Shown here: positions 12,633-57,860 of the stretch, piece after piece | Layout: the number at the start of each line of letters is the position of its first letter | How positions within the stretch are numbered: the stretch's first letter is position 1 | IMG/VR virus record: IMGVR_UViG_3300006163_000001 | Direction: 5' to 3' (one strand) | Origin: a virus | DNA length: 64,000 nt | The notes under the pieces: generated by a model | Database searches by the model: none | What the model saw: only the letters and a program-made list of their open reading frames with translations | What the model was told of the DNA's origin: nothing | Made by a program: the position numbers and the translations under genes

Positions 12633-13471
12633 CACGCCACCTCGATCAGGTCGAGGCGGCCGGCCTGCTCCAGCTGGCAGCGGCACATCCGCATCTCGTC
12701 CTGCGCGACCCAGCAGCCGTCAATGTCGTCCTGCGCGGCCAAACGGGCACAGTGCGCGGAAGCCTGCCGGTAGCGGGTCGCGGCCTCCGCCGGCTCGATC
12801 AGATCCAGGCGCCCGGCCTCGGCGAGGACACCGAACGCGTCGGCGACCGTCTGCCGCGCGGCAAGGAACGCATCCACCTCAACCGGCGACAGCGTCGACG
12901 CCGGACGGGCATCCAGCTCGTCGTAGCGGGCCGTCGCGATCTCGAAGCGGGTGACGGCACGGACGATGTGCAACGGCATCGGGACGAACGCGCGCTCCAG
13001 ACGGGCCAGGGCCTCGACGGCGGGCGCGGGAAGCGGGGCGGTGGGGGTGTCGTCGATCCACTGAAGGTCACTGACGGCCATCACGTCGGAGTTGGCGAGC
13101 CTGCCCAGCTCCCGAGTCGTCAGCCCCTGCCGCTGCGCGCCGTCCCACACCAGCTCCGGCGAGACTGCGCCTACCAGAGTCTGTAGCGGGCCCTCACAAA
13201 ACAGGGCCATCAGGGCGGCATCGTCGGCGCGGCTCGCGCCGATCTCACGGCCAGCGGCCAGCGCCGCCTCGTAGGAGGCGTATGAGACCTTGCGGATCTT
13301 TCGGGCCGGAACGTCGGCGGCCTGCTGAGCGGCGGCTTCGCGAAGCGCTTCGGCATCCGCCATGCGCTGCTCGATACGGGCAATGCGGGCCTGAGCTTCG
13401 TCAGCCGACTCAACGTCCAAGCCGGTGGTGCTGCTGCATGTCTGCGCACCATTAAGATCGGTGGTAGCCAC
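12632..13471 (-). CDS. hypothetical protein; first gene of the leftward operon
   Basis: 279-aa ORF with realistic composition. A divergent intergenic region lies upstream. Confidence 0.75.
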   Translation of the reverse strand: MATTDLNGAQTCSSTTGLDVESADEAQARIARIEQRMADAEALREAAAQQAADVPARKIRKVSYASYEAALAAGREIGASRADDAALMALFCEGPLQTLVGAVSPELVWDGAQRQGLTTRELGRLANSDVMAVSDLQWIDDTPTAPLPAPAVEALARLERAFVPMPLHIVRAVTRFEIATARYDELDARPASTLSPVEVDAFLAARQTVADAFGVLAEAGRLDLIEPAEAATRYRQASAHCARLAAQDDIDGCWVAQDEMRMCRCQLEQAGRLDLIEVA

Positions 13472-13632
13472 AGGGTCTCCTCTACAGAACCTGGTGGTTA
13501 GGGCCGGCCTGCGAGTGGAGTCGCGGTGTCCGGCCCGTCTTCTTTTGTGTGCACCGGTGGAGCGATGCGTAAGGCTTCAGGCGGTGGAGCGCCCTTGCCT
13601 TCAACACCATCCTGAACCCAGCCTGAGGCCGT

Positions 13633-13673
13633 GTCAACACTCTATTGAGAATCGGCGTGTTGACTTCTACTCT
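13633..13673 (+). promoter_or_regulatory. candidate leaderless promoter with flanking inverted repeat
   Basis: TTGAGA (13645-13650), 17-nt spacer, TACTCT (13668-13673), 6 nt before ATG 13680 with no SD. The IR GTCAACAC (13633) / GTGTTGAC (13657) brackets the -35. Confidence 0.5.
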
Positions 13674-13679
13674 GGCCTC

Positions 13680-14021
13680 ATGACAGATGCGTTCACGGAG
13701 TCCCTGGAGGCGAAAGTCGCCGAAGTTGAAGCCATCGAAGACCTGCTCACGCAGGGCCGCGCCGCCCTCGAAGCACGCCAGAAACTGGCGGAGAGCGACC
13801 AAGCCCTCTACGCAATCGAGCAGGCCGCCGTGCGAGGGCTGCGCCAGGGACGCACGTGGGCAGAGGTAGGTGAACTGTTCGGGCGTAGCTATGCCTGGGC
13901 GGAAGCCATCGCCAAAGGGCGCAGCTCGAAGCGAGGGAAGACTGACCATGCCGCCGAGTCAACGCCTCGCGCGGGCGCGGCAGAAGGACACTCCCCCGAC
14001 GCCGAAACGCCAGATCCGTAG
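13680..14021 (+). CDS. hypothetical protein, coiled-coil N-terminus, possible C-terminal HTH
   Basis: Internal ATG (MTDAFTESLEAKV) in the listed ORF. Segment GRTWAEVGELFGRSYAWAEAIAKGR looks HTH-like. Confidence 0.6.
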   Translation: MTDAFTESLEAKVAEVEAIEDLLTQGRAALEARQKLAESDQALYAIEQAAVRGLRQGRTWAEVGELFGRSYAWAEAIAKGRSSKRGKTDHAAESTPRAGAAEGHSPDAETPDP

Positions 14022-14096
14022 CACCTAGACACCGCGGCGACACAAGCTAGCCGTCGCCCCGCCAGACCCGAGCGCAGCGAGCACGGGAGCCTCACA

Positions 14097-14735
14097 GTGG
14101 AACTCGTCGGCACCTGGACCGGCAAAACCGCATGCCTCCTTCAGGAGGCCATGCGAATGACGAATGAGGCGTTCGCCGAACGCCTCGGGATCTCCACCCG
14201 GACGATCACTCGGTGGCACGCCAACCCCGAGATGATCCACCGGACCGAGGTTCAACAGATCCTGGACATCGCATACGAGGAGGCGGACGAAACGGTGCAC
14301 CGGCGGTTCGCGCTCCTACTGCGCCCCGCAGAGCCGCGCATGGAAGCGCAGGCGCTGCGGGTAGCGATAGCCGTCGTGCTGCGAGGAGACGATGTGCTGC
14401 TGGTCTGCCGCCGAGGGGACGGCGAGCTGCGCTGGCAGTTCCCCGCTGGCATGGTCAAGCCCGGAGGTGTCGGCGAGACCGTCGCCGTTCAGGAAACCCA
14501 CGGCGAGACCGGCGTGCACTGCACGATCCGCCAGCACCTCGGAGAACGCATCCACCCGGTAACCGGCGTCATCGCCGAATACCACCTCTGCGACTACCTC
14601 GCCGGCGACGCCACGAACCGTGACTCGCTGGAGAACGTGGACGTGACGTGGGTTCCCCGCGCCGCGGTCACGCGCTTCATTCCGCAGGACCAGATCTACC
14701 CGCCAATTCTGAGCGCCTTGGAGGCAGCTGCATGA
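14097..14735 (+). CDS. XRE-type HTH fused to a Nudix-fold domain with a degenerate Nudix box
   Basis: GTG preceded by GGGAG. HTH segment NEAFAERLGISTRTITRW. Nudix-box region GMVKPGGVGETVAVQETHGETGV lacks three consensus catalytic residues. Confidence 0.8.
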   Translation: MELVGTWTGKTACLLQEAMRMTNEAFAERLGISTRTITRWHANPEMIHRTEVQQILDIAYEEADETVHRRFALLLRPAEPRMEAQALRVAIAVVLRGDDVLLVCRRGDGELRWQFPAGMVKPGGVGETVAVQETHGETGVHCTIRQHLGERIHPVTGVIAEYHLCDYLAGDATNRDSLENVDVTWVPRAAVTRFIPQDQIYPPILSALEAAA

Positions 14736-15142
14736 CCGAGACGACGACTGAGAAGCCGGGCATTTCCGCCGCCATCATCGTGAGCGACGGGCGTGTGCTC
14801 ATGGTCAGGCGCCGCGTCTCCGAGGGCGAGTTGATGTGGCAGTTCCCGGCGGGCGCCATCGAGCCGGGCGAGGCCGCGGTGGACGCGGCCGTGCGCGAGA
14901 CAGGCGAGGAGACGGGACTGACGGTGAAGGCGATCCGTCTGCTCGGCGAGCGCATCCACCCCAAGACCCACCGTCTGATGTCCTACACGGCTTGCGAGGT
15001 GGTGGATGGCGAGGCGCGCGTCGCGGACGACGAGGAGCTCGACGCGATCACCTGGGCCGCACACTCCGAGCTTCCCGAACTGGTGCCCTACGGCCTGTTC
15101 GGCCCCGTCCAGGAGTACCTCGACGAGGTGCTGCCGCACTGA
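14732..15142 (+). CDS. Nudix hydrolase (canonical Nudix box)
   Basis: ATGA overlap with the upstream gene and GGAGG RBS. GAIEPGEAAVDAAVRETGEETGL fits GX5EX7REUXEEXGU. Confidence 0.85.
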   Translation: MTETTTEKPGISAAIIVSDGRVLMVRRRVSEGELMWQFPAGAIEPGEAAVDAAVRETGEETGLTVKAIRLLGERIHPKTHRLMSYTACEVVDGEARVADDEELDAITWAAHSELPELVPYGLFGPVQEYLDEVLPH

Positions 15143-15204
15143 TGTGCAGATGCCGTGTGGAGCCCTGCCGCGTGGGTGACCCTGCTGTGAGGCTCCTCTA
15201 ACGC

Positions 15205-15260
15205 GAACGGCCCGGTGCGCGAACACCGGGCTCGTTCCACCAGCGAGCGCGAACTCGCTG
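15205..15260 (+). terminator. two consecutive stem-loops with identical CGCGAA loops
   Basis: GAACGGCCCGGTG-CGCGAA-CACCGGGC(T)CGTTC, then CAGCGAG-CGCGAA-CTCGCTG. Confidence 0.55.
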
Positions 15261-15296
15261 ATCACCAACCCACTCCCCGCTAGAGAAGAGGTCTGG

Positions 15297-15611
15297 ATGA
15301 ACACCTTACTGTGCAAGGCTGCCCACGCGCCTGCGTCATACGCCACAGTCGGCCTGACGCCCGACCGCGTGCTCGACACGCCGCTGCCTGATCTGCTCGC
15401 CGAGCTGGACGTCGAGATCGTGGCCAGCTCGATCACCGACCGCGACTTCTTCGGCGCGGTCGTACAGCGCAAGAGCGGCGAGACGTACCTGTCCATGCCG
15501 GTCGGCCGTAGCGAGCTGGAGCACGACACGGTCGCCCGCTACCTCATCGCGCAGGCCTTCGATGTGGGGCTGCCGCAGTTGCCGGCGCCGTTCGTGACGG
15601 CCGAGATTTGA
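15297..15611 (+). CDS. hypothetical protein (104 aa)
   Basis: ATG preceded by GAAGAGG. Its stop overlaps the TTG of the next listed ORF. Confidence 0.6.
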   Translation: MNTLLCKAAHAPASYATVGLTPDRVLDTPLPDLLAELDVEIVASSITDRDFFGAVVQRKSGETYLSMPVGRSELEHDTVARYLIAQAFDVGLPQLPAPFVTAEI

Positions 15612-15625
15612 GCCGGGGAGCAGAC

Positions 15626-16735
15626 ATGCCTGCCTTTCCTGTTTCACCGAACACGGTGCTGGCCAACGCGCTCAGTTGCGCCGAGGACGTGCTGACGCCT
15701 CGTATCCGCACCGCCGAGCCGGAGCGGATCGTGTTCGTGGTGGGCACGCAGATCAACGGCGTTCCGCACCTCGGTACTTCGCTGGTGCAGTCTCTGACGT
15801 TCGCTGCCGCGGGCCGAGTCCGCGAGCGCTTCGGCATCCCTGTCGAGGTGGTGTTTGGCGCGCTCGACAACGCGCCGCACGAGATCGTCGTGGATCCGGT
15901 GTCGGGGCACCGGTACCAGCGGGCCTACGCGCACGCGCTCGGCGAGGATGCTCTCGCCGGCCAGGTCGAGGAGCTGTATCGGCCGCTGTTTGAGGCTCTG
16001 TCCGAGCGGTTGTCGATCCCGTACTCGATCGAGCTGTACTCGCGGCAGCAGGCCGACGGGCACTTCCGGCAGACGTGGCTGCGTGCTCACCGCCGCATCG
16101 ACGCTGCCCGCTGGTGGCTGGACCCGGCGCACGGCACTCCGCATGTCCGTGTGCCATGCACTGAGCCGGGCTGCGGGTGGGCCGAAAAGTACGCCGACCG
16201 CACCCGCATCCTGCTGGGCGACGAGCACGCCCTGGTGCACGCTGTCTGCCTGCATCACGGCCCATACGAGGTCACCATCACCCTGGGCGGGGGCGGGTAT
16301 CTCGATCTCGCGACGCTGTACCGGAACCTCGTGAAGGAGCTCGCGGCGACCGCGGACCGCGACCGGCTGTCCGTCATGGTGAAGGGTGGCGACTGGGTGT
16401 TCGGGTCGACTCTGGTCGACAACGCCCTGGCCGCAATCGGGCTTACGGCCGGCCAGCTGCCAACGCGGCTGTTCTGTCCGCAGGTCGTCACGGACACCGG
16501 GGCGAAACTGTCCAAGTCCCTGATCCGCGAGGGGCGCGCGTCGTTGCCCGCTGGCTCCGCGCCGTGGATGCTCGATACCCGACTGTGGCCGGGGTCGTTG
16601 TCTGAGTACGCCGATCGGCTGTTGGAGATGGCCGCAGTGTTCTTCAGCGATCCTCGGCATTTTTTCCGTTCGTATTCGGCCGGAGAGCTCGGCCGTCTGA
16701 TGGCCCATTCGACAAGGAGCGTCACGACCCTATGA
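15626..16735 (+). CDS. class-I aminoacyl-tRNA-synthetase-like catalytic-domain protein (class-I LysRS-like), no recognisable anticodon-binding domain
   Basis: ATG preceded by GGGGAG. HIGH-like motif NGVPHLGT, KMSKS-like motif GAKLSKS, and a Cys/His insertion CTEPGCGW...VCLHHG. Only 369 aa. Confidence 0.7.
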   Translation: MPAFPVSPNTVLANALSCAEDVLTPRIRTAEPERIVFVVGTQINGVPHLGTSLVQSLTFAAAGRVRERFGIPVEVVFGALDNAPHEIVVDPVSGHRYQRAYAHALGEDALAGQVEELYRPLFEALSERLSIPYSIELYSRQQADGHFRQTWLRAHRRIDAARWWLDPAHGTPHVRVPCTEPGCGWAEKYADRTRILLGDEHALVHAVCLHHGPYEVTITLGGGGYLDLATLYRNLVKELAATADRDRLSVMVKGGDWVFGSTLVDNALAAIGLTAGQLPTRLFCPQVVTDTGAKLSKSLIREGRASLPAGSAPWMLDTRLWPGSLSEYADRLLEMAAVFFSDPRHFFRSYSAGELGRLMAHSTRSVTTL

Positions 16736-17088
16736 GCACCACCAGGACCGCCCGTAGACACGAACTCAACCTGTACCGCCGCTATTTCGAGCTGGTCGCG
16801 GCGGGCCGCAAGTCGATCGAGGTACGGGTTCGGTATCCGCATCTCGCGGACATGGCGGCGGGCGACGTGATCCGCTTTCGGATCAAGGGTACCGACGAGA
16901 CGTGCGACGTGCTCGTGAAGCGGGTGACTGCTTACGACGGCTTCGAGGCGCTGCTCGACGGCGAGGGCCCGGCGAACGTGAACCCGGCGGCGGGCCGCGA
17001 GGAGCAGCTTGCGAACATTCGCGGGATCTACCCGCCGGAGAAGGAGGCGCTCGGAGCCCTCGCAATCGAGATCGAACTACTCGAATAG
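16732..17088 (+). CDS. ASCH (PUA-like fold) domain protein
   Basis: ATGA overlap with the upstream gene. LNLYRRYFELVAAGRKSIEVRV...GDVIRF...VKRVTAY is typical ASCH architecture. Confidence 0.75.
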   Translation: MSTTRTARRHELNLYRRYFELVAAGRKSIEVRVRYPHLADMAAGDVIRFRIKGTDETCDVLVKRVTAYDGFEALLDGEGPANVNPAAGREEQLANIRGIYPPEKEALGALAIEIELLE

Positions 17089-17143
17089 GCGCCTGGAATA
17101 GGCCACTTGAGTGACAGGTGGCCCGTAGAATGAGAGCAAAAAG

Positions 17144-17179
17144 AAGCGGCCGGACGGGGCTCATTCCGTCCGGCCGCTT
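17144..17179 (+). terminator. strong stem-loop terminator closing the plus-strand cassette
   Basis: AAGCGGCCGGACGG-ggctcatt-CCGTCCGGCCGCTT, 14-bp perfect stem, A-run before and T-run after. Confidence 0.75.
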
Positions 17180-17332: not shown

Positions 17333-17677
17333 GTGTTGATAGTCCGCCGCTCGAAGCTGCGTAAGGGTTTTTCGCAGCCTCCGAACGAGATGGTGTTCGA
17401 CGAGCGACTGAGCATGCTGGCCAGGATGGTTCTGGTCGAGATCATTGCGAGGCCGCCCGGCTGGCAGACGAATGCGCAGCAGATGTGGGAGAAGGCGTAC
17501 CGGAACCGTGGCGCGCGAGCCGAGGGCAAGCGCGCCTACCGGACAGCGTTCGCAGAGCTGGAGGAGTACGGCTACATGACGCGGGAGACCAAGAAGATTC
17601 CTGCCGGAGAGCCTGGTGGGGGCGGCTTCGTCACGGTACTCACCGCATACGACCTTCCTCGCAAAGCAGACAATTAG
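17333..17677 (+). CDS. winged-helix DNA-binding protein (replication-initiator/DnaD-N-like HTH)
   Basis: Pattern GFSQPPNEMVFDERLSMLARMVLVEI...AFAELEEYGYMTRE. Start (GTG 17333) is uncertain. Weaker GC3 bias than neighbouring genes. Confidence 0.6.
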   Translation: MLIVRRSKLRKGFSQPPNEMVFDERLSMLARMVLVEIIARPPGWQTNAQQMWEKAYRNRGARAEGKRAYRTAFAELEEYGYMTRETKKIPAGEPGGGGFVTVLTAYDLPRKADN

Positions 17678-17782
17678 AGGACGCAGCCAGCGGACCCCTC
17701 GCGGACCGGACCCTCCGGGTTGGAGATAGCCCGCCGCGGACAGTCCGCCAGCGGGTCCCTATTAAGAACACGGGCTACCTAA

Positions 17783-19441
17783 CCTCGCGCTTTCATGAGG
17801 TGGCCTGTCCGCAGGCTGATCAGAAACACAGAAAGTGCTCTTGACCTGCAACGATAGGACTTGCTGAGGGTCCTGTTGGCTGCGAGGGAAAGAGCACTTT
17901 CCGGGTGAGAGAGCCTATCGCGTCGTACCCGCGTGTCCGTGTCCAGGGAGACGGCCGCCAGGTGGTCTCGCAGGCTGGCTCGGTCCTGCTGGTGGAGACG
18001 GTCCGTAGAACCGGCCTCGACCAGGCGATATCCGCGGCGCTGGCACCGTGGCGCAAATCCCGGGCCGTCCATGATCCGGGGAAGATCCTCCTGGACGTCG
18101 CACTGGCGGTCGCGCTGGGCGGGGACTGCCTGGCCGATGTCGGCATGCTGCGGGCCGAGCCCGCCGTGTTCGGGCCGGTCGCCTCCGACCCGACGGTCTC
18201 CCGCCTGGTCGACACCCTTGCAGCCTCCGGAGAGAAAGCTCTGCGGGCGATCCGTGCCGCGCGGGCCGAAGCACGCCAGTGGGCCTGGCAGTTGGCCGAC
18301 GGGAAAGCGCCCGATGCGGGCAGGGCGGTGACCGTCGATCTCGACGGGGTGCTGGTGATCGCGCACTCGGACAAGGAGGACGCCGCACCGACGTGGAAGA
18401 GAACCTACGGTCACCACCCGCTGATGGGGTTCGTCGACCACGGACCGGGCGGCACCGGTGAGCCGGTGGCGGCCCTGCTCAGGCCGGGGAACGCGGGATC
18501 GAACACGGCCGCCGACCACATCACCGCCACCCAACTGGCCCTGGCTCAACTGCCGAAGAAGTACCGGCGCGGACGCCAGACTCTGATACGCACCGACTCC
18601 GCGGGCGGCACCCACGACTTCGTCGCCTGGCTCGCCCAGCGAGGACGGTGGCTGTCCTACTCGGTCGGCATGGTGATCACGGACACGATCCACCAGCACG
18701 TGCTGAAGGTTCCGGCGTCGGCCTGGACGCCCGCCGTCGAGGCCGACGGGGAGATCCGTGACGGCGCCTGGGTCGCCGAACTCACCGGCGATGTCCTGGA
18801 CGGCTGGCCGAAGGGCATACGGCTGATCGTCAGGAAAGAACGACCGCACCCTGGAGCTCAGTTGAGGCTCACGGACGCGGACGGCATGCGGCTGACCTGT
18901 TTCGCCACCAACACCTCCGGCCGGCCGATCGCCGAACTCGAGCTCCGTCACCGGCTGCGGGCCCGGGCCGAGGACCGCATCCGGGCTGCCCGGGCCACCG
19001 GCCTGCGGAATCTCCCTTTGCACCGCACCGCCCAGAACCGGATCTGGCTGGAGATCGCCCAGATCGCACTGGACCTGCTGGCCTGGATGCCGATGCTCGC
19101 ACTGACCGGCACGGCCAGGCTCTGGGAGCCCCGCCGACTGCGGCTCCGTCTTTTCACCACGGCCGGACAACTCGTGAACACCGGCCGTCGGCGGATCCTC
19201 CGCCTGGCCCGGCACTGGCCCTGGACCAGCCACATCACCACAGCTCTCGAGCGGCTCGCACTCCTGCCGAACCCCGGCTGACCAACGGATTCCCGTCCCT
19301 ACGACAGCAGCTCAACACTCGGAGCAGTGGAACCCGGCGCCACCCCGAGGCGACACTCGGGCCCTGGGCCTGCACAGCCTTCGCCCACGGCACGAAAACG
19401 GTCCACCGACTCCGTCGGCGGACCGTCACGAAACTTCGAGG
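17783..19441 (+). mobile_element. IS1380-family insertion sequence (1659 bp) with 4-bp target-site duplication
   Basis: Imperfect terminal IRs CCTCGCGCTTTCATGAGG / CCTCGAAGTTTCGTGACG (rc). CTAA direct repeats at 17779-17782 and 19442-19445. Single transposase ORF. Confidence 0.85.
17905..19281 (+). CDS. IS1380-family (DDE) transposase
   Basis: 458 aa with the characteristic N-terminus ...VQGDGRQVVSQAGSVLLVETVRRTGLD and overall family resemblance. A 12-bp IR (17831-17842 / 17890-17901) lies just upstream of the GTG. Confidence 0.9.
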   Translation: MREPIASYPRVRVQGDGRQVVSQAGSVLLVETVRRTGLDQAISAALAPWRKSRAVHDPGKILLDVALAVALGGDCLADVGMLRAEPAVFGPVASDPTVSRLVDTLAASGEKALRAIRAARAEARQWAWQLADGKAPDAGRAVTVDLDGVLVIAHSDKEDAAPTWKRTYGHHPLMGFVDHGPGGTGEPVAALLRPGNAGSNTAADHITATQLALAQLPKKYRRGRQTLIRTDSAGGTHDFVAWLAQRGRWLSYSVGMVITDTIHQHVLKVPASAWTPAVEADGEIRDGAWVAELTGDVLDGWPKGIRLIVRKERPHPGAQLRLTDADGMRLTCFATNTSGRPIAELELRHRLRARAEDRIRAARATGLRNLPLHRTAQNRIWLEIAQIALDLLAWMPMLALTGTARLWEPRRLRLRLFTTAGQLVNTGRRRILRLARHWPWTSHITTALERLALLPNPG

Positions 19442-19537
19442 CTAATACGGATCTACCAAACCTGCTGGCTAGCAATATTCGGGGGCGCAGCCCGGCCTCA
19501 GTGCGTGCGTGCGCGCGAGGCGAACGAAAGGAACCCG

Positions 19538-21003: not shown

Positions 21004-21455
21004 GGCTGCTCCTGGGTGTCGGTCGCTTGTGCCGCTGCCGCCTCGGGCGTGGGGCCGTCGATACGGTTACGGAGGTCGGTGGCGAGGGCGTTGTACAGCC
21101 GCCGGTCGTCTTGCTTGAGGGCGTTTTCGCCGAACTCTTCGAGCCGGCTAGCGAGCGCGTGCACCCGTTTGAGTGCGGCTTCGGCGGTCTCGGCGCGCAT
21201 GGTCTCGGCGTAGCTGCTGTCGAGGGCGCGGGCGCAGGAGGCGCAGGTGGTGTGCCAGTTGATGATGTGGTCGATCTCGGCGATCTTGGCGCGGAGTCGG
21301 TCGTTTTCGCTGTCCAGCGCGGCGACCTTCGCGGCATGCCGCTCGTCGGAGCAGATCAGCGGCATGTTGCCGCCGGTTGCTGCGCCGGTGCCGGTCTGCG
21401 GGTTGACGATGAAGCCGAGCGACGGGGCGTGCGGGTCGATCGGGACGTCGGTCAT
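21000..21455 (-). CDS. hypothetical coiled-coil protein
   Basis: 151-aa ORF with ATGA overlap upstream. Confidence 0.75.
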   Translation of the reverse strand: MTDVPIDPHAPSLGFIVNPQTGTGAATGGNMPLICSDERHAAKVAALDSENDRLRAKIAEIDHIINWHTTCASCARALDSSYAETMRAETAEAALKRVHALASRLEEFGENALKQDDRRLYNALATDLRNRIDGPTPEAAAAQATDTQEQP

Positions 21456-21712
21456 GCGGCGGTCTCCTTTGCGGGTTCGAGGTCGAGTTCGTCGAAGCGG
21501 ATGACGGCGCGCCGTAGGGCGATGACGACGGCGTGTGTGCGGGATCGGGCGCCGAGGCGGACTTGGGCTTCCTTGAGCCGCAGGTGGACGCCTTGTTCGG
21601 TGGTGTCGAGGCGGGCGGCGATCTGCCGGGATGTATAGCCGGATGCGGCGAGGCGGAGGGCGGCGATCTGCCCGGGGCTGAGGGGCTTGCCGGTGTAGCC
21701 GGGGGATCTCAC
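21452..21712 (-). CDS. LuxR/GerE-type HTH protein (86 aa)
   Basis: GTG preceded by GGGGAGGAG. LSPGQIAALRLAASGYTSRQIAARLDTTEQGVHLRLKEA. Confidence 0.75.
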   Translation of the reverse strand: MRSPGYTGKPLSPGQIAALRLAASGYTSRQIAARLDTTEQGVHLRLKEAQVRLGARSRTHAVVIALRRAVIRFDELDLEPAKETAA

Positions 21713-21906
21713 GTTGCTCCTCCCCCGCGCCGTGCTGCTGTTCGTTCGCGTCGGGCGTCGGCTGCGGCCATGCGCATGAGTGCGCGTTCGATGACGACGG
21801 CGCGGACTTGTCCGGCGTAGCGGCCGTCGAGGATCCGCTCGGAGGTGTGGGTGATCAGTTCGCGGGCCTGCGAGCGGCGCTTCGGGGTCGGCTGGGTGTC
21901 GGTCAT
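21709..21906 (-). CDS. hypothetical protein (65 aa)
   Basis: Internal ATG (MTDTQPTPKRR) with overlaps on both sides. Confidence 0.55.
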   Translation of the reverse strand: MTDTQPTPKRRSQARELITHTSERILDGRYAGQVRAVVIERALMRMAAADARRERTAARRGGGAT

Positions 21907-22334
21907 CGTGCGCGCCTTCCTGCGGCGAAGCCCCGGGCGTAGGCGTCGTCGTCGGGCTTGGGCCGGACGTTGAGCCGGATGCCGCTCTTCTGCTTGCCGC
22001 TGCCCCAAGGCAGCGCGAGCCCATCGCCCTTGGAGCGAGGAACCAGGTGCAGATGAAGATGCTTCACCGTCTGGGTCGCTTCCCGACCGCGGCTGGTGAT
22101 CAGGTTCACCGGGCCTATCTCGTCGGCGAGTTGGGCGGCGCGGCGCATGGTGGCGGCGGACACGATCGGGTCGGCGACGAAGTCGGTGACGTGTGTCTTC
22201 GGGATGACGAGGGTGTGGCCGTCGACTACGGGGTTGAGTGGGACGATCGCGATGGCGTCGGACCACTCGTGGACGAACGTGGCTGGCGCGCGTCCGGTGT
22301 TGATCTCGCAGAACGGACAGGGCTGGTCGGTCAC
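21903..22334 (-). CDS. HIT (histidine triad) family nucleotide hydrolase/transferase
   Basis: CPFCEI N-terminal motif and histidine triad HLHLHLVPR. GTG start. Confidence 0.85.
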   Translation of the reverse strand: MTDQPCPFCEINTGRAPATFVHEWSDAIAIVPLNPVVDGHTLVIPKTHVTDFVADPIVSAATMRRAAQLADEIGPVNLITSRGREATQTVKHLHLHLVPRSKGDGLALPWGSGKQKSGIRLNVRPKPDDDAYARGFAAGRRAR

Positions 22335-24192: not shown

Positions 24193-24477
24193 TCAGAGCG
24201 GCGTTGCGGCCTCGGCGGCTCCCGGCGGGCCTTCAACGCCCGCCAGCCGCTCAGGCGCGCCCCCAGCACCCTCCACGGGCACCAGATGCGCGCCGCCACA
24301 CACCGCGCAGTCACCCGGCGTCAACCAGGCCGCCGCAGCAGACAACGCCGGCCCCAGGGACGCCCGCGCCAAATCGGCGCTCGCAAACCGCGGCAGACCC
24401 GTAGGACACGGCGGACGGCGAACCGTGCGCGGCGGATGGGGCAGCCAGGGGCGGCGGCGGGGGTTTCCGGGCGACAT
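24193..24477 (-). CDS. hypothetical protein (94 aa)
   Basis: ATG overlaps the MTase stop (TGATG). MSPGNPRRRPWLPHP...TPGDCAVCGGAHLVP. Composition is only moderately convincing. Confidence 0.45.
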   Translation of the reverse strand: MSPGNPRRRPWLPHPPRTVRRPPCPTGLPRFASADLARASLGPALSAAAAWLTPGDCAVCGGAHLVPVEGAGGAPERLAGVEGPPGAAEAATPL

Positions 24478-25472
24478 CACGCGGCCACCCCCAGCGCCGG
24501 CGCAGTGGCCGCCTGGGCGAGCGCTGCGGCGAGCGGGACCGGGCAGGCGTTCCCACATTGCTGCGGGATGTCGTTGCCGCTCCACGGCCAGTCGGCGGGG
24601 AAGCCCTGCAGCAGTCCGGCCTCCGACGGGGTGAGCCGCGGGAGTTCCCGGCCGTCGAGGTCGACAAGCCGCAGCCGGCTGATCTTCCCGGTGACGGTGA
24701 AGGCGGGTTCGAGGTGTGTGCGCCGGCCGCGGTTGCGGGGGTCGCCGCCGGTGCCGTAGTTGGAGATCACCGTGAACGGGCCGCGATGCGGAAGGACGTC
24801 GGCCATGGACCGCCACGGCAGCAGACGGACGTCTCCCGCGTCCTGGGCGATCCCGCGGCGGTACGGGCGATGCGTCGGCTCCGGCAGTCGGGCCTCACCG
24901 ACGAGGCGGGCGACGAGAACAGCCCGGCGGCGGGTCTGCGGCACCCCGAACTGCTCGGTGCGCAGAATCCCGGTGGCCACCGAGTAGCCCTCGGCGCGCA
25001 GGACTTCCGCGTAGGCGTTCCACACCTGCTGCACCTGCTGCACCTGCTCCAGCACAACCGCCTCGTAGGGGCGGCCGGCGTCGGCGGCCTCAAGGGCCCA
25101 CCGCAGCGGCTCCAGGACGAGCCCGGTGCGCTCGTCCTCGAAATCCTTCAGCGCCTGGGCGATGCCTTTCCGGGCGGCGAGCATCTGCGCCAAACCGAGG
25201 ACGACATCAAGGGCCTTCCTTCCCCGCCCTATGCCACCAACAGAGAACGGCTGGCACGGCGGGGAGCCGATGAGGTCGGTGGCGTCCGGGAAGTCGGCTG
25301 GCCCATAGGTGCGCACGTCGCCCTCGACGGTTCCCAGGCTGGCGGCCCTCCGCGTCTCGCAGGCGGCGTGATCGCGTTCGATGCCGACTACGCGGAGCCC
25401 GAGCCGGGTGGCCCCGACGTCCCAGCCGCCCGGACCTGCGAACAGGTCGACAGCCTGGCGCGCGCCCGGCAT
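24477..25472 (-). CDS. DNA (cytosine-5)-methyltransferase
   Basis: Motifs DLFAGPGGW (I), SPPCQPFS (IV), LEQV (VI), QTRRR (VIII) and QCGNACPVPLA (X). Confidence 0.9.
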   Translation of the reverse strand: MPGARQAVDLFAGPGGWDVGATRLGLRVVGIERDHAACETRRAASLGTVEGDVRTYGPADFPDATDLIGSPPCQPFSVGGIGRGRKALDVVLGLAQMLAARKGIAQALKDFEDERTGLVLEPLRWALEAADAGRPYEAVVLEQVQQVQQVWNAYAEVLRAEGYSVATGILRTEQFGVPQTRRRAVLVARLVGEARLPEPTHRPYRRGIAQDAGDVRLLPWRSMADVLPHRGPFTVISNYGTGGDPRNRGRRTHLEPAFTVTGKISRLRLVDLDGRELPRLTPSEAGLLQGFPADWPWSGNDIPQQCGNACPVPLAAALAQAATAPALGVAA

Positions 25473-26548
25473 CACGCCGCCACCTGCCCTGCCAGGAACG
25501 GCACGCCCGAGGCGGCACCCGCCACATGGGCGGCGAGCAGCGGGGGGACGGCGTTGGCTATCTGGAGGAACTGCTTCGACTGGCTGCCGTGGAACGGATG
25601 CGTGGGGCGGAAGCTCTGGAGGACGGCCGCCTCGGAGATGAGCAGGGGGCGCTTCTCCAGTGCGTCCTCGCCATCGACTTTGACCCACTCGTAGTCGTGG
25701 CGGGCGTGCCCGGCGACCAGGGTGGCCGCCGGCTGGTCGATGCGGCGCACAGTGGCGTTCGAGCGCTTGCTGTGCCGCAGCACCCACCAGGAACGGCACT
25801 TCTCGGTGAGCGCCCACGACGGCTCGTCGACGGGGAAGTTGTTGCCGCCGGGCGTCTTCCGGTCGCCACGGGTGTTGATCTCAAGGCCGGGCTCTAGGCC
25901 GAGAGCCTGGGCCATGGTCACCCAGGGCAGCCGGGTGAAGCCGAACAGGTCGGTTTCGGTGTTCTCGCCGTGTGTCGGGTCCGGTGCGCTCACATCCCGA
26001 ACGCGGGAGGCGATCAGGATGGCGCGACGCCGGGTCTGCGGAAGCCCGTAGTCGGCGGCGTTCAGCACGCCGGTCCACACGCTGTAGCCCCAGCCGCGGA
26101 GGATGCCCGCGTACTGCTTCCACAGGAGCAGCACGTCGGGGACCTGCTCCATGCACACCCATTCGGGCCGCAGATCATGCAGCCACCGCATCGGCTCCGC
26201 GGCCAGGATCGACTTGTCGTCCTTGCAGGCAGCCTTCACCCGGGCCCGGGTGTCACGGCCGTGGGCGAGATCTTCGACAGCCTGGTAGACGAGCGGCAGA
26301 TCGGCGAGACCGCCCAGCTTGCCGGCCCGCGAAAACGGGGTGCACACCGGCGAGGAGATCTTGCCTGTGATGCGGCCGCGGAACGGTGCGGTGGGGTACT
26401 GGGTGACGTCGCACCGGATGGTGAGGTGGCCGGCGGCGTGCGCGGTGCGGCAGGCGTCGGCGTCGAGCTCCAGGCCGACGTCGGTGAGGCCGAGCAGGCG
26501 GAGGCCTTCGGACCAGCCGCGCGGGCCGCTGAACAGGTCGACGATCAC
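25472..26548 (-). CDS. C5-MTase-like paralog with non-canonical motifs
   Basis: DLFSGPRGW (I), SSPVCTPFS (IV, Val-Cys rather than Pro-Cys), MEQV, QTRRR, IANAVPPLLA. GTG preceded by GGAGACGG. Confidence 0.8.
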   Translation of the reverse strand: MIVDLFSGPRGWSEGLRLLGLTDVGLELDADACRTAHAAGHLTIRCDVTQYPTAPFRGRITGKISSPVCTPFSRAGKLGGLADLPLVYQAVEDLAHGRDTRARVKAACKDDKSILAAEPMRWLHDLRPEWVCMEQVPDVLLLWKQYAGILRGWGYSVWTGVLNAADYGLPQTRRRAILIASRVRDVSAPDPTHGENTETDLFGFTRLPWVTMAQALGLEPGLEINTRGDRKTPGGNNFPVDEPSWALTEKCRSWWVLRHSKRSNATVRRIDQPAATLVAGHARHDYEWVKVDGEDALEKRPLLISEAAVLQSFRPTHPFHGSQSKQFLQIANAVPPLLAAHVAGAASGVPFLAGQVAA

Positions 26549-33584: not shown

Positions 33585-34520
33585 CTACTGCTCGGCGTCG
33601 ACGAGTTCGGCGTCGTAGGCGCCGTCCTCGTCCGGTCCGACCGCCTCTGCCTTCTTGCGGTCGGCGATTTCCTTGAGGTCGGCGATGAGCTGGTCGTTGA
33701 GGTGGCCTGCGGCGAAAGCGCGGCGGTAGACGTCGCCGACGTCGTCCGGGGTCAGGGCGCCTTCGGCTTCGGCGAGGTAATCCGGGCGGGGCCCCTCGAT
33801 CGCAGCCACGGCCCGGCTGCCGCTCGCCGGATCCAGGGCGACTGCGGCGGTCATCGGTCCGGCCAGCGCCTGCCGCGGGGTCACCCCGCGAAGCTCGACG
33901 ACCACGACGGGGAACTTCTTCGTCTGGCCGTCGCGGACGACCTGCCGCGGCTCGATCCGCAGCGTCACCGGCACGAAGCCCTTGCCGTCGGTTCCGGCGA
34001 GGACCATGTCGACCATGCCGCCCCACTCCCCTGCGGCGTAGAAGGAGTGGGTCTCGGCCCGCCACATGCCCATGCCGGACAGATCCGGCAGCATCACGTT
34101 GAGGCGGGACGTGGTGGAGCAGACGGTGCCCTTCTTCTGCTGGTGCCAGTCCTCGCCGAACCGGGCCGCGCAGATGCACGGCTGACGTGAGAGAAGCTCG
34201 GTGTCGCCGTCGCAGCGGCGCTGGCAGCCACCCGCGGACCACATCTCGTTGTACTGATTCAGCGGGTCCCCGGGGGTGATCAGCGCCTCAATCGAGGACG
34301 CCTTGGTGATGACCCGCCACTGGGTGATCGTCGAGTTGAGCGGCTGCCACTGCTCGGGTTCGCCGCCCCACAGTTCGGCCGCGGCGCGGACGTGCTCCTC
34401 GGAATGGGAGGTGACGACCCACGTGGCGGACCGCATGGGCCGCTTGCCCTGGGTGTAGCCGGTGCGGAGGCGGCCGTGCTCGGCGGCACGGGCCTGAATG
34501 TTGCGGAGTCGGGAGCCCAC
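33585..34520 (-). CDS. putative ssDNA-binding/annealing (recombination) protein; family unresolved
   Basis: GTG preceded by GAAAGGTGG. It sits directly downstream of the exonuclease and has an acidic C-terminal tail (DEDGAYDAELVDAEQ). The function is inferred from context only. Confidence 0.6.
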   Translation of the reverse strand: MGSRLRNIQARAAEHGRLRTGYTQGKRPMRSATWVVTSHSEEHVRAAAELWGGEPEQWQPLNSTITQWRVITKASSIEALITPGDPLNQYNEMWSAGGCQRRCDGDTELLSRQPCICAARFGEDWHQQKKGTVCSTTSRLNVMLPDLSGMGMWRAETHSFYAAGEWGGMVDMVLAGTDGKGFVPVTLRIEPRQVVRDGQTKKFPVVVVELRGVTPRQALAGPMTAAVALDPASGSRAVAAIEGPRPDYLAEAEGALTPDDVGDVYRRAFAAGHLNDQLIADLKEIADRKKAEAVGPDEDGAYDAELVDAEQ

Positions 34521-34522
34521 GG

Positions 34523-35368
34523 TCAGGCCACCTTTCGGAAGTTGCGCCACCGGGCCGGGACGGGCTGGTCCGGGGCGAGGAGGGCGGGATATGAGGAGGG
34601 GGCGGCGTGGTGCCACAGCGCGTTGACGAGGGCGCCGCGGAACGCCCTGTGGGCTTCACGTCCGGCGGGCATCTCGACGAGGGCGTGGGACTTGGCCCGC
34701 AGGTTGAGGACGCCGGTCCGTTGGATCTCCGGCATCGGTTGCTCGGTGTCGTCCGGAAGGAGGACGGTCTCGCAGTAGCGCAGTGCCGCCAGCTGCTGGG
34801 TGTTCTCCGGGTAGACGGCCTTCGCGGAGCGCGTGGCTGACGTCTTGAAGTCGATCAGCCACAGTTCGAGGGCGCGGCGCTTGCCGGTGGGCAGCCAGAT
34901 CATGAGGTCGGCGGTGCCGGCGTAGCCGAGTCGGCGGTGCAGGCAGGTGATCTCGGCGGCTTCGACGTGCTTGTCGATGTCGACGCCCCAGAAGCCGAGG
35001 AAGGCTTCCAGTTGAGCGAGGTAGGGGGCGACTTCGCGGGCGACTGCGAATGGGGCGCCGAGGAGGCGCAGTTCGGCGGCCTTGTGGATGACGGTGCCGA
35101 GGTCTGCGGCCTGGTCGCGGGCGTCGATGTGGATCTGCTTGAGCTGCTTGGTGAGCGCTGCCCGGTCGGTGATCGCTCGGCGGGCGACTTCCATGCGGTG
35201 GTCGAGGATCCACTCGACGGTGAGCTTGACCGCCCACGGCATCAGTGACCGCGTCTTGTTGACCGAGGTGTCGAGGACGTTGGTGACGGAGACGAGGTCG
35301 GGTCCACCAGCTGGGTCGGTGTAGTAGCGGCCGTTTTCGGTTTCGCGGGCGTGGCGTGGCTCGGTCAC
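34523..35368 (-). CDS. PD-(D/E)XK RecB/Cas4-like exonuclease
   Basis: GTG with GTGA overlap. YTDPAGG...VSVTNVL, GTADLM and ELWLIDFKTS (D...ExK core). Confidence 0.8.
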   Translation of the reverse strand: MTEPRHARETENGRYYTDPAGGPDLVSVTNVLDTSVNKTRSLMPWAVKLTVEWILDHRMEVARRAITDRAALTKQLKQIHIDARDQAADLGTVIHKAAELRLLGAPFAVAREVAPYLAQLEAFLGFWGVDIDKHVEAAEITCLHRRLGYAGTADLMIWLPTGKRRALELWLIDFKTSATRSAKAVYPENTQQLAALRYCETVLLPDDTEQPMPEIQRTGVLNLRAKSHALVEMPAGREAHRAFRGALVNALWHHAAPSSYPALLAPDQPVPARWRNFRKVA

Positions 35369-36437: not shown

Positions 36438-37079
36438 TCAAGCGGCGGTCGGCTCAGCGACCGGCTCGTCGCGCTTTGCGGCCTTCCACGCGTCGAGTTC
36501 GCGGCGGAGTTCGAGGTCGGCGCCTTCGCGACGGATCGGCATCTGCCCGCCGAGGAAGTCGGCGGCGACGATCAGCGACATGCGGCCCTCGCCCGTCGAC
36601 CACATCTGGACGGGCTTCGGCAGGTTCTTCCAGGCGCCGAAGAACTTCGGGTCCATGGCCATCTGGGCATCGGCGGCGGGCTTCTCCAGGGCGGGCAGGA
36701 GCAGCTTCCGCCAGTCCAACGGGGCCTTGGTGTACGGGCTGAAGTCGACGGCGACCCGGTGCCCGCGCTTCCCCGAAAGGATCAGCTGGCTGTCGGTGCG
36801 CTCCAGTTGGACGGTGTCCGCGTCGAGGAGGCGCACAGCGGCGGCGAGCTCGGGAATCTGGGTGCGGTGGACGATGGCCGCCCACGGTTCGTCGTCTCCG
36901 CCGGTGACCTGCGTGCGGGCTACGGCGATCGTGTACCGGTTGGTGGCCATGGCGTACAGGTGGCGGCCGTCGTGGTCGAAGGTGATGCACTGGACGGCTT
37001 CGGCGTCGACCAGGTTCCCGACGTGGGGGCGGGTTTGGGCGACGAGGCGACTGAGGGTGTGGTCGGCGATGGTGATCAC
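36438..37079 (-). CDS. short beta-clamp (DnaN)-like paralog
   Basis: 213 aa. LSRLVAQTRPHVG...HLYAMATNRYTIAVAR resembles the DnaN domain signature (ATDGHRLA-type). Confidence 0.6.
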   Translation of the reverse strand: MITIADHTLSRLVAQTRPHVGNLVDAEAVQCITFDHDGRHLYAMATNRYTIAVARTQVTGGDDEPWAAIVHRTQIPELAAAVRLLDADTVQLERTDSQLILSGKRGHRVAVDFSPYTKAPLDWRKLLLPALEKPAADAQMAMDPKFFGAWKNLPKPVQMWSTGEGRMSLIVAADFLGGQMPIRREGADLELRRELDAWKAAKRDEPVAEPTAA

Positions 37080-38210: not shown

Positions 38211-38368
38211 GCCGCCTCCTCCGCTCCGGTGTCGTCGAAGGCGAGCTGGTCGGGGTCGGCGGCTGGCGTCTCCGGCTCGGGCTCCGGGGCGGCGACGGGC
38301 CAGGGCTGGGGCTGTCCGCTGCCGGTGACGGCGGTGTCGGGGAACAGGGCGAGCTGGGTGGCGTCCAT
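38207..38368 (-). CDS. small acidic protein with N-terminal clamp-binding-like motif (53 aa; not in ORF track)
   Basis: ATG preceded by AGGAGA. MDATQLALFPD... GTGA overlap with the dnaN start. Confidence 0.5.
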   Translation of the reverse strand: MDATQLALFPDTAVTGSGQPQPWPVAAPEPEPETPAADPDQLAFDDTGAEEAA

Positions 38369-38386
38369 GGCGGTCTCCTGGCAGGG

Positions 38387-44808: not shown

Positions 44809-44885
44809 GCGACCATGATTGATGCGGAGTCCCGGCAGCAGGGGTGCCTGCCGGACTACCGCACCACCACGACAAGGGGGCGAGT

Positions 44886-52584: not shown

Positions 52585-52964
52585 GCCGACGCCTCGTTTT
52601 CGGAAGCCTCGTCGGCCATGCGGCGCAGCAGGTCGGCGGCGTCCATGACTCCGCCGTTCCATGCGTCGCGGTAGGTGTCGTAGCCGTAGTCGTTGCAGTC
52701 GGTGTCGTAGTCCATGCGACCGAGCTGGTCGGCAGCCTCGCGCAGCACGGCAGCCCGCCCGTCACTCGCGGGTAGCAGGCCCAGCCGCCGAGCCACGGGG
52801 TCCTGGTCGAGAGGCGGAAGCGCCGGGTCTCGACCGGCCAGCGCCCTCACGATCTCGAACTGCCCCTCGATCGCCTCCCGCTGCTCCGGCGGCAAACTCG
52901 ACAGGTCCGGCTCGGGGCCGAGGCCGCGCAGGAACCGCAGGTACTCCTCGATCAGGTCAAGCAT
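52581..52964 (-). CDS. hypothetical protein
   Basis: 127-aa ORF. Shares LPPLDQDPVARRLGL with gene 22865-24127. Confidence 0.65.
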   Translation of the reverse strand: MLDLIEEYLRFLRGLGPEPDLSSLPPEQREAIEGQFEIVRALAGRDPALPPLDQDPVARRLGLLPASDGRAAVLREAADQLGRMDYDTDCNDYGYDTYRDAWNGGVMDAADLLRRMADEASENEASA

Positions 52965-57809: not shown

Positions 57810-57860
57810 GCGTCGGTCTCCTCGGCAAGTTGAGGGTTCCGGGCCGACGGTCAACTGCTG

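Follow-up and report, generated by a model that had tools for sequence, protein, structure and literature searches.

The stretch analyzed here, the window, comprises 64,000 nucleotides of IMG/VR virus record IMGVR_UViG_3300006163_000001 and carries a block of plus-strand genes in which two neighbors, a predicted enzyme resembling the core of a class I aminoacyl-tRNA synthetase (g5) and a small protein with an ASCH domain (g6), make up a module of their own, with coupled translation and, in some cases, fusion into a single chain. The pair moves among chromosomes, plasmids, elements resembling actinomycete integrative conjugative elements (AICEs), and temperate phages such as Picard, in which it lies next to the integrase. 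An earlier reading of this DNA, the original prediction, had treated positions 13633 to 17179 as one self-contained cassette of horizontally acquired cargo. The six plus-strand open reading frames (ORFs) on which it was built lie where it had placed them, and the same six emerge from an independent gene call on the 94.6-kb metagenomic source contig:

13680 to 14021, plus strand: g1, 113 amino acids, acidic, of unknown function, element backbone
14097 to 14735 (alternative start 14157), plus strand: g2, 212 or 192 amino acids, XRE-like helix-turn-helix (HTH) with a degenerate Nudix domain
14732 to 15142, plus strand: g3, 136 amino acids, canonical Nudix hydrolase
15297 to 15611, plus strand: g4, 104 amino acids, acidic, of unknown function
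15626 to 16735, plus strand: g5, 369 amino acids, stand-alone core resembling class I lysyl-tRNA synthetase (LysRS)
16732 to 17088, plus strand: g6, 118 amino acids, compact ASCH (PUA-like) protein of the PH0355/YqfB type

Both of the ATGA overlaps that had been noted, g2 with g3 and g5 with g6, are visible in the sequence, and the domain assignments are borne out by Pfam matches to NUDIX in g2 (2e-11) and g3 (1e-22) and to ASCH in g6 (5e-9). The end of the block at 17179 does not stand, as plus-strand genes go on to about 20272 with a 114-amino-acid gene, an insertion sequence (IS), and two more small genes; nor is the cassette self-contained, as g1-g3 and g5-g6 each occur without the other in related loci. 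Horizontal acquisition had been argued from third codon positions richer in A/T than those of the flanking operons. The six genes have a mean GC content at third codon positions (GC3) of 0.83, compared with 0.88 in 12 genes flanking them, a difference that is not significant (Mann-Whitney p = 0.21), and this part of the argument falls away; what survives is the mobility of g5-g6, which are read as mobile cargo because the homology boundaries of the pair are sharp. No known RNA families or tRNA genes were found in or near the block, and no tRNA gene lies anywhere in the 64 kb.

Conservation and Fusion of the g5-g6 Pair

A scan of one genome per species yielded 323 genomes with a g5 relative, and the best 80 of these 323 together with phage Picard make up the 81 loci compared throughout. 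ASCH directly follows g5 in all 81 genome and phage loci and in 11 of 11 IMG/VR contigs, and the 4-bp overlap between the two genes is kept in 79 of the 81. Plasmid relatives with 52% identity or more likewise all have ASCH beside g5, as does every later-seen relative of at least 45%; unfused g5 relatives below about 45% identity come without it. The two families are similar in size, with 719 matches for g5 and 646 for g6. In the Streptomyces phages Picard and Mojorita the pair (71% and 82% protein identity) is located between the lysis genes and a serine integrase and is annotated as "tRNA synthetase" and "RNA-binding protein."

Single-chain fusions of g5 to ASCH occur in P0122 (484 amino acids) and P0134 (443 amino acids). 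A distant g5 relative with 25-30% identity (P0223) is fused to an ASCH domain of the ZmASCH type: its C-terminus gave no match to the g6 profile in hhalign, and the same segment matches ZmASCH at 2e-10, which assigns it to a different ASCH subtype. Because a distant relative is fused to a different subtype, the association of g5 with ASCH arose more than once. The ZmASCH fusion on contig Ga0316628_100000591 (L110, 3411-6470), when re-read, is an ORF of 571 amino acids with its own PHVGS motif; the deposited gene call of 489 amino acids misses the N-terminal 82 residues that hold this HIGH-type motif. A further apparent fusion of 494 amino acids (P0126), which seems to stem from a frameshift in the gene call, was left out of the evidence.

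The original prediction knew of no described system with this combination of genes, and for the pair this holds. No match was found for g1, g4, g5, or g6 in PADLOC v2.0 (library 2023), no paper on a synthetase-like protein paired with ASCH was found in the full-text literature searched, and no PADLOC, Pfam, or NCBIfam model was found for g5 or for g5-g6. No curated family, defense model, or searched paper describes g5 or the g5-ASCH pair.

g5, a Synthetase-Derived Enzyme

The g5 protein matches PHROG 35625 (1.5e-180); searches returned no Pfam or NCBIfam family at E ≤ 0.1, no PADLOC match, and, with phmmer, nothing in the PDB. Its AlphaFold2 model, with a predicted local distance difference test score (pLDDT) of 80 and a predicted template modeling score of 0.83, has the core of a class I synthetase. 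The best Foldseek match is 1irx, the class I LysRS of Pyrococcus horikoshii (E 4e-9, template modeling score (TM) 0.57, 359 columns, 14% identity), followed by GluRS, MetRS, CysRS, BshC, and MshC. The structure search gave 77 PDB matches at E ≤ 1e-3, and the 50 best of the 77 are almost all class I synthetases, joined by the paralogues MshC, BshC, and PyrN. A profile of 28 diverse g5 members retrieved only 1irx from the PDB, at a marginal E of 0.009.

The synthetase-like motifs named in the original prediction are in place: PHLGT, the HIGH-type motif, occupies residues 47-51 after a strand at 34-42, and KLSKS, the KMSKS-type motif, occupies residues 294-298 after a strand at 280-283. The Rossmann fold, HIGH, and KMSKS of the class I aminoacyl-tRNA synthetase catalytic-domain superfamily are all found in g5. 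Across 28 family sequences, down to 21% identity, P47, H48, G50, K294, and K297 are invariant, and the invariant or nearly invariant positions include P47-H48-x-G50, G254-x-D256-W257 (GGDW at 254), G292-x-K294-x-x-K297, C178, C183, C208, and H211. Column identity averages 78% across 30 Streptomyces sequences, and the ATP motifs do not vary within the family, which numbers more than 400 clusters at 50% identity. About 70 residues beyond KMSKS the model comes to its end, and family members are uniformly 350-377 amino acids long; because the protein stops there, g5 is without an anticodon-binding domain. The features of tRNA-synt_1f, the class I LysRS family, are missing from g5, which has no match to the family, no C-terminal anticodon-binding domain, and 369 residues compared with about 500-530. 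From sequence and model together, g5 is a constrained and presumably active stand-alone enzyme on a LysRS-I core, with a putative Cys3His metal or iron-sulfur site.

The original prediction had left room for an ordinary LysRS or a decayed fragment, and g5 is neither. Some relatives of g5 are named "Lysine--tRNA ligase," "Methionyl-tRNA synthetase," or "tRNA synthetase" in databases, as would be expected if it were an ordinary or decaying lysyl-tRNA synthetase with ASCH beside it by accident. The chance of this is vanishingly small. Identity to LysRS-I is 14%, with no tRNA-synt_1f match and no anticodon-binding domain; the HIGH, GxDW, KMSKS, and Cys motifs remain invariant down to 21-25% identity, which speaks against decay; and adjacency, overlap, and fusions are systematic, which speaks against an incidental ASCH.

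g6, an ASCH Protein

The Pfam ASCH match of g6 (PF04266) scores 37.3 bits against a cut-off of 21.2, which places it in the domain family, and its sequence matches in the PDB are PH0355, PF0469, and PF0455. The AlphaFold2 model (pLDDT 90) aligns in Foldseek with 2z0t (PH0355) at TM 0.84-0.91 and a root-mean-square deviation of 1.8 Å, and with YqfB, an amidohydrolase of N4-acetylcytidine (ac4C), in 9kyf and 9kyh (E 2e-5, TM 0.71-0.81), including the complex with ac4C. The octapeptide G25-R-K27-S-I-E30-V-R32 (GxKxxExR) of g6 is the YqfB/GK[E/T]R motif. Its residues G25, K27, E30, and R32 are invariant in the 81 loci, and the motif is also present in the fusions P0122, P0134, and P0223. ASCH proteins of both the GKTR and the GKER type remove the acetyl group from ac4C, whether it is a nucleoside or part of tRNA. 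The Lys and Glu were shown to be essential in TthASCH, EOLA1, and TRIP4, and removal of ac4C from tRNA occurs both in vivo and in vitro (bioRxiv 10.64898/2026.02.27.708502).

A Mosaic of Element Backbone and Cargo

The six genes were checked for co-conservation by tblastn and blastn across 81 + 26 loci. Orthologues of g1, g2, and g3 are absent from every one of the 81 genome and phage loci and of the 11 viral contigs with g5-g6, and at the DNA level all 81 loci resemble the window only within 15610-17084, from the ribosome-binding site of g5 to the stop codon of g6. The converse arrangement is seen in Streptomyces sp. Z423-1 (L108) and S. tendae (L109), both integrated elements, which have g1-g3 and a g4-like gene and no g5-g6. 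Their order runs from FtsK/SpoIIIE, DUF4236, and small minus-strand genes to a divergent g1-like gene, a 212-amino-acid HTH-Nudix gene, a 137-amino-acid Nudix gene, and the g4-like gene, followed by minus-strand genes that include GerE, as in the window. The DNA of L109 is 79% identical to window positions 13464-15142. In L101, L002, and L004-L006, GntR genes fill the slot of g1-g3 upstream of g4-g5-g6. The region is thus a mosaic, in which g1-g3, a pair of twin hairpins, and the g4-type gene constitute the element backbone and g5-g6 are inserted cargo. The backbone part is a divergently transcribed regulatory block of a family of Streptomyces mobile elements; g1-g3 are read as the element's own regulatory and Pif-like block because they recur without g5-g6 beside FtsK/SpoIIIE and because GntR genes take the same slot elsewhere.

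The original prediction had joined all six genes into one system of sensor, pyrophosphatase, ligase, and reader. They do share a strand, close spacing, and apparently one promoter, and Nudix genes recur near members of the g5 family: downstream of g6 in about 10 Streptomyces loci, near the pair on an Amycolatopsis plasmid (L094), and, together with PNPOx, beside a distant g5 relative (L088). A single system is nevertheless very improbable, and the six-gene unit was rejected: co-conservation failed in all 81 loci and 11 viral contigs, the g1-g3 block exists without g5-g6, a strong and conserved double hairpin parts g3 from g4, and the recurrent Nudix genes of the Streptomyces loci match g3 along just a part of its length, with no more than 37-48% identity, and stand downstream of g6, not upstream. 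Of the co-occurrence that had been proposed for the synthetase-like, ASCH, and Nudix genes, the first two hold together and a g3-type Nudix orthologue does not accompany them.

The individual backbone genes agree with this division. Neither g1 nor g4 has a family match in Pfam, NCBIfam, PADLOC, or PHROG searches. The GC3 of g1 is only 0.71, and g1 is regarded as a real gene because homologues hold the same position in L109 (77% amino acid identity) and L108 (41%). For g2, which had been described as an XRE-HTH fused to a degenerate Nudix fold, the Nudix fold is supported by Pfam and the HTH falls below every Pfam cut-off. Its Nudix box, GMVKPGGVGETVAVQETHGETGV, retains the fold match and is not intact, three catalytic residues being replaced (E>G124, R>Q132, E>G136); because of these replacements g2 is probably a Nudix-fold protein that is not a hydrolase, and it is probably the regulator of the block. 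The g2 family has more than 1000 relatives, mostly in Streptomyces. In g3 the box GAIEPGEAAVDAAVRETGEETGL, from residue 41 (G41-x5-E47-x7-R55-E56-x2-E59-E60), keeps all catalytic residues of GX5EX7REUXEEXGU, and the claim of a canonical Nudix protein is upheld. A g3-type Nudix gene comes after the g2 homologue in both L108 and L109, whose products are 81-84% identical to g3. In PADLOC, g2 and g3 match only the single-gene Nudix candidate PDC-S07 (g3, 3e-16). By analogy, g3 is a candidate Pif-like gene. The gene g4 is found beside g5-g6 in the closest relatives (L002, L003, L006, L097, L098, L100, and L101) and, as a g4-like gene, beside g1-g3 without g5-g6 in L108 (54%) and L109 (41%); only 3 of the 81 g5-bearing loci have it.

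Promoter, Operator, and Hairpins

The non-coding features of the block are as follows:

13601 to 13673, plus strand: promoter/operator region with half-sites and hexamers
13601 to 13607, plus strand: half-site TCAACAC, the third half-site of the operator region
13633 to 13640 and 13657 to 13664, plus strand: inverted repeat GTCAACAC / GTGTTGAC, 8-nt arms
13645 to 13650 and 13668 to 13673, plus strand: hexamers TTGAGA and TACTCT with a 17-nt spacer, the latter 6 nt before the ATG at 13680
15205 to 15260, plus strand: twin hairpins with CGCGAA loops (15210-15231 and 15241-15260), between g3 and g4
17144 to 17179, no strand assigned: hairpin with a 14-bp stem downstream of g6, z = -5.4

The inverted repeat that was said to bracket the promoter is present. 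The leaderless promoter itself has evidence on both sides: the hexamers exist and are conserved in S. tendae, and TTGAGA-17-TACTCT agrees with the consensus at 8 of 12 positions, a consensus promoter scan of the region returning 0 sites. Despite the negative scan the promoter is probably real, because the promoter/operator stretch is 90% identical in L109, where the adjoining coding DNA is about 79% identical, and because the repeat arms, the third half-site, and both hexamers are unchanged there. Positions 13601-13673 would then work as an operator plus leaderless promoter.

Both of the twin hairpins with identical CGCGAA loops reported earlier are in the sequence. Together they fold at -35.9 kcal/mol (z = -4.9 relative to shuffled sequence), and both are kept in L108, where the second stem shows a compensatory change from CAGCGAG/CTCGCTG to CGGCGAG/CTCGCCG. 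Homology to L109 stops at 15142 and homology to S. mirabilis (L003) begins at 15256, around these hairpins, which are probably a terminator or attenuator marking the mosaic junction. For the 14-bp-stem terminator assigned to 17144-17179, the stem is present and the expected U-tract is not: the T-run lies on the minus strand only, and the plus strand forms a hairpin without a U-tract. L003 retains the hairpin with one pair altered to G-U. In 56% of loci a strong hairpin is found no more than 150 nt from g6, compared with 16% in a coding control, and the structure at 17144-17179 probably ends the g4-g6 transcript. After it, at 17333-17677 on the plus strand, is a gene for a basic protein of 114 amino acids (isoelectric point (pI) 10.0, GC3 0.78) with a faint HTH_36 match, kept beside g4-g6 in L003.

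The Carrying Element

The window encodes FtsK/SpoIIIE, a replication initiator, DnaB, DnaN, a Gp3-like directionality factor, and two tyrosine recombinases. A review of AICEs describes a Nudix (Pif) gene beside a GntR/XRE regulator, plus an FtsK-like Tra (PMC2440964). The same layout is found here, with an XRE/GntR-type regulator by a Nudix gene on an element that has FtsK/SpoIIIE, a replication protein, and a recombinase, and by this analogy g1-g3 fit a Kor/Pif-like regulator plus Nudix module of AICEs. IMG/VR lists relatives of the element as viral; no capsid or terminase genes were seen among the ORFs scanned. A plasmid identity of the window was also considered; when 24 kb of it were compared with PLSDB by megablast, the IS gave the only match.

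That IS, an IS1380-family element, is not part of the module:

17783 to 19441, plus strand: IS1380-family IS, 1659 bp, Pfam DDE_Tnp_1_4 5e-91

Its presence downstream of the block, claimed earlier, is confirmed by this Pfam match. The ends CCTCGCGCTTTCATGA and CCTCGAAGTTTCGTGA form imperfect terminal inverted repeats, CTAA is duplicated at 17779-17782 and 19442-19445, and the element is 82-88% identical to plasmid-borne IS1380 copies. The uninterrupted site is found in S. mirabilis L003, and because this empty site persists the insertion is recent; the IS landed near g5-g6 later than the pair was inserted.

Several other features of the window were recorded. Two adjacent C5 cytosine DNA methyltransferases (24477-25472 and 25472-26548, minus strand) lie downstream of the block, as do a HIT-family protein (21903-22334) and a GerE regulator (21452-21712), both on the minus strand. 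Cytosine methylases and a HIT hydrolase near a putative cytosine-directed module may be a coincidence. A Gp3-like recombination directionality factor is encoded at 33585-34616 (minus strand), and a full DNA polymerase III beta clamp at 37101-38477 (minus strand) is accompanied by a partial clamp-like ORF at 36438-37079. ORFs resembling tyrosine recombinases (Phage_int_SAM_3 / Phage_integrase) are located at 44844-46169 on the plus strand and 51568-52662 on the minus strand, the second just below the cut-off. An ORF of 557 amino acids at 56181-57854 (minus strand) has a TROVE (Ro60-like) domain (Pfam 5e-17), which hints at a module for RNA quality control or of the Y-RNA type on the same element.

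Genomic Neighbors of the Pair and Its Distant Relatives

In Streptomyces chromosomes the commonest neighbors of the pair are regulators: an NsdA-family tetratricopeptide repeat protein with a methyltransferase, WhiJ/XRE-type proteins, and an anti-sigma-like ATPase. The anti-sigma-like small ATPase lies directly upstream of the pair, and mobility genes (relaxase, DUF3631) are also common nearby. Phage Picard (L001, NC_047794, 3610-7460) has a complete WhiJ-like set upstream of the pair, comprising a DUF397 protein, a 324-amino-acid DNA-binding protein, and the anti-sigma-like ATPase gp26, and the same types of regulator flank the pair in many Streptomyces chromosomes. The genes immediately upstream vary between loci. 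On a 34-kb linear plasmid of S. koelreuteriae (NZ_CP101650; L095, 3770-4664), a gene for an RRQRL-motif zinc-binding protein and PycTM, a Pycsar effector, are immediately upstream; no annotated cyclase is present in the 11-kb stretch of this locus shown. HamB (Hachiman), a type I restriction subunit, mad3, and IetA are among the other neighbors.

These surroundings bear on whether the pair is a nucleotide-centered anti-phage or anti-plasmid immune module, in which ASCH would sense or reset a modified cytosine nucleotide and g5 would be the effector or signal generator, for instance through aminoacylation of (d)CTP, depletion of ATP, or production of a nucleotide signal to which effectors like PycTM respond, and in which carriage by prophages and AICEs would exclude competitors. 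The placement in Picard, with lysis genes on one side, the integrase on the other, and genes of the DUF397, WhiJ-like, and anti-sigma-like types in company, is what such a module might show, as are the PycTM effector directly upstream on the plasmid, the restriction- and Hachiman-type neighbors just named, a dCTP-deaminase-family gene beside the distant ZmASCH fusion, and the variable upstream genes, which are typical of defense loci. Set against this, PADLOC has no model for g5 or g6, the commonest neighbors are developmental-type regulators and a methyltransferase, and only about 5 of 92 neighbor families match PADLOC at E ≤ 1e-10, a count without a background rate that gives no evidence for a defense island. 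An immune module is rather unlikely, and a role in defense or addiction would be compatible with chemistry on either a free nucleotide or tRNA.

More distant relatives of g5 keep different company. On a plasmid of Pantoea sp. JZ29 (NZ_CP045242; L111, 4228-8008), a relative with 27% identity sits in an apparent operon with an S-adenosylmethionine methyltransferase, a LOG/TIGR00730 protein, a DMT transporter, and a non-canonical NTP pyrophosphatase; from its gene content this operon looks like a modified-nucleobase pathway. A gene of the dCTP-deaminase family encoding 388 amino acids is directly upstream of the ZmASCH fusion in L110, and another lies near a Streptomyces g5 member in L114. Other distant relatives are found with AdoMet-decarboxylase-like and PK-like genes or are fused to an AdoMet-decarboxylase-like domain, occur with two ATP-grasp ligases and an MFS transporter, or belong to a cluster with a pyridoxal phosphate enzyme, AurF, a carbamoyltransferase, a methyltransferase, and a dioxygenase. 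Nucleotide-processing enzymes are present in most of the annotated contexts of the distant relatives. As judged from these annotations, the contexts of the wider g5 family have a recurring small-molecule and nucleotide theme, with several cytosine-specific links.

A Possible Make-and-Break Pair Directed at Cytosine

We infer for g5-g6 a synthetase paralogue recruited for non-translational acyl transfer. Among the ideas of the original prediction, a nucleotide or nucleic-acid aminoacylation pathway is the best-fitting on the sequence evidence, and for g5-g6 only. In the form put forward here, g5 and g6 may be an amide-forming and an amide-hydrolyzing enzyme that act on the same cytosine-containing molecule, a reading suggested by sequence and models and held tentatively, as possible though somewhat short of probable. 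According to this scheme g5 would activate or receive an amino acid or another carboxylate and hand it to an amine, creating an amide bond, with either an ATP-activated acyl group or an aminoacyl-tRNA as the donor. The ASCH protein g6, as an amidohydrolase of the N4-acyl-cytidine type, would break an acyl- or aminoacyl-amide, and the two would share one cytosine-containing target on which one makes the amide and the other breaks it. The likeliest substrate would be a free cytosine nucleoside, a nucleotide, or a cytosine nucleoside antibiotic, which the pair would mask and unmask or detoxify, and the benefit to the carrier may be resistance, immunity, or addiction.

Several considerations weigh against this scheme. 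All of its chemistry is inferred from fold, motifs, and neighbors, and enzymes that make and break an amide would run a futile cycle unless time, place, or substrate kept their steps apart. Each nucleotide-enzyme neighbor is a single case in a distant relative of 25-45% identity, with dcd in L114 perhaps a housekeeping gene, and most Streptomyces neighbors are regulators (NsdA-like, WhiJ/XRE-like, anti-sigma-like) that are silent on substrate. The GKER-type proteins ZmASCH and TRIP4 do not hydrolyze free ac4C (bioRxiv 10.64898/2026.02.27.708502). A stem-contact-like C-terminal region kept in g5 and the demonstrated tRNA activity of ASCH proteins fit a tRNA substrate equally well.

These last points lead to a pair directed at tRNA or another RNA, in which g5 would acylate a tRNA cytidine in the manner of GluQRS or TmcAL and g6 would either erase the mark, the two then being writer and eraser and possibly a toxin-antidote pair, or, as a PUA-like subunit that binds RNA, stand in for the missing anticodon-binding domain. 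The g5 protein keeps the LysRS-I core as far as the helical region after KMSKS (the 359 columns with 1irx), and the fusions put ASCH at the C-terminus, where the anticodon-binding domain would sit. ASCH removes ac4C from tRNA, and B. subtilis writes ac4C34 with the synthetase-like TmcAL (bioRxiv 10.64898/2026.02.27.708502). Tight coupling and a location on plasmids, prophages, and AICE-like elements would also fit an addiction-type module. There is, however, no tRNA gene or conserved RNA next to g5-g6, and homology reaches no further than 0-16 nt ahead of the g5 ATG. With pI values of 6.5 for g5 and 5.8 for g6, the two proteins are acidic to neutral, the distant members are among small-molecule and nucleotide enzymes and not translation genes, and neither TmcAL nor GluQRS is among the 50 best of the 77 structural matches of g5. 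Stable fusion of a toxin to its antidote would moreover be unusual. An RNA-directed pair is considered unlikely, though far from negligible.

Wider Implications

The amide-forming and amide-hydrolyzing pair proposed above would extend a known pattern. Synthetase paralogues without an anticodon-binding domain have repeatedly been found to make unexpected products, among them glutamyl-queuosine, ac4C, and mycothiol. The g5 family, which apparently derives from LysRS-I and has no model in Pfam, NCBIfam, or PADLOC, looks like another such case, and in one of its clades an ASCH amidohydrolase is the fixed companion across more than 300 actinomycete species plus phages and plasmids. Removal of N4-acyl groups from cytidine by ASCH proteins was shown only recently, and a dedicated partner enzyme would point to a new acyl or aminoacyl modification of cytosine, or a new metabolite, with a function worth carrying for mobile elements. 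At 1.5 kb the pair is small, which makes it directly testable. Recognition of the pair corrects the annotation as "tRNA synthetase / RNA-binding protein" in Streptomyces phages, and the neighboring Nudix genes would belong to a different, already understood type of module.

A bolder version combines several of these ideas into a nucleotide-centered conflict module of actinomycete phages, plasmids, and AICE-like elements, in which g5 would aminoacylate the exocyclic amine of cytosine in a nucleotide or tRNA and ASCH would serve as reset or antidote. It is improbable, and were it true, the module would produce a modified base or a poisoned nucleotide, would confer immunity against phages or rival elements or post-segregational addiction, and would represent a new modification of nucleotides or nucleic acids as well as a new family of enzymes descended from class I LysRS.

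Comparison with Known Systems

The g1-g3 block is comparable to the AICE module of pSAM2 (KorSA/XRE plus Pif) in that a regulator lies by a Nudix gene and the element also encodes FtsK/SpoIIIE-type transfer, replication initiation, and recombinase proteins. It differs in that the regulator g2 is itself fused to a dead Nudix domain, and the element, on a 94.6-kb contig with DnaB, DnaN, and methylases, is far larger than classical AICEs.

Class I LysRS (1irx) shares with g5 the Rossmann core, the HIGH- and KMSKS-type motifs, and a Cys/His-rich insertion at the same place. In contrast, g5 is about 150 residues shorter, has neither the anticodon-binding nor the C-terminal domain, and resides on mobile elements beside ASCH. 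GluQRS/YadB, TmcAL, and MshC are truncated class I synthetase paralogues that acylate targets other than the tRNA 3' end via an adenylate, the acyl or aminoacyl group going to a base (Q34, C34) or to a small molecule, and g5 likewise has a stand-alone core without an anticodon-binding domain. Their lineages are those of GluRS, nucleotidyltransferases, or CysRS, whereas g5 comes from LysRS-I, and none of them is known to be paired with or fused to ASCH.

A parallel to the proposed chemistry may be BlsK of the blasticidin S pathway, which was reportedly annotated as LysRS-like, carries a [3Fe-4S] cluster on three cysteines, and moves leucine from Leu-tRNA to the amine of a cytosine peptidyl-nucleoside for self-protection. 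The g5 family, with three near-invariant Cys and one His and a cytosine and nucleotide theme, may resemble it. No blasticidin-type cluster surrounds g5, no BlsK annotation is found among the source names of 20 g5-family representatives, and BlsK is not known to be paired with ASCH.

The ASCH amidohydrolases YqfB, PH0355/PF0455, and TthASCH have the compact fold of about 110 amino acids and the GxKxxExR octapeptide that are also found in g6, to which they are 23-36% identical. These known enzymes stand alone and act on N4-acetylcytidine, whereas g6 is tied to a synthetase-like enzyme by translational coupling or by fusion.

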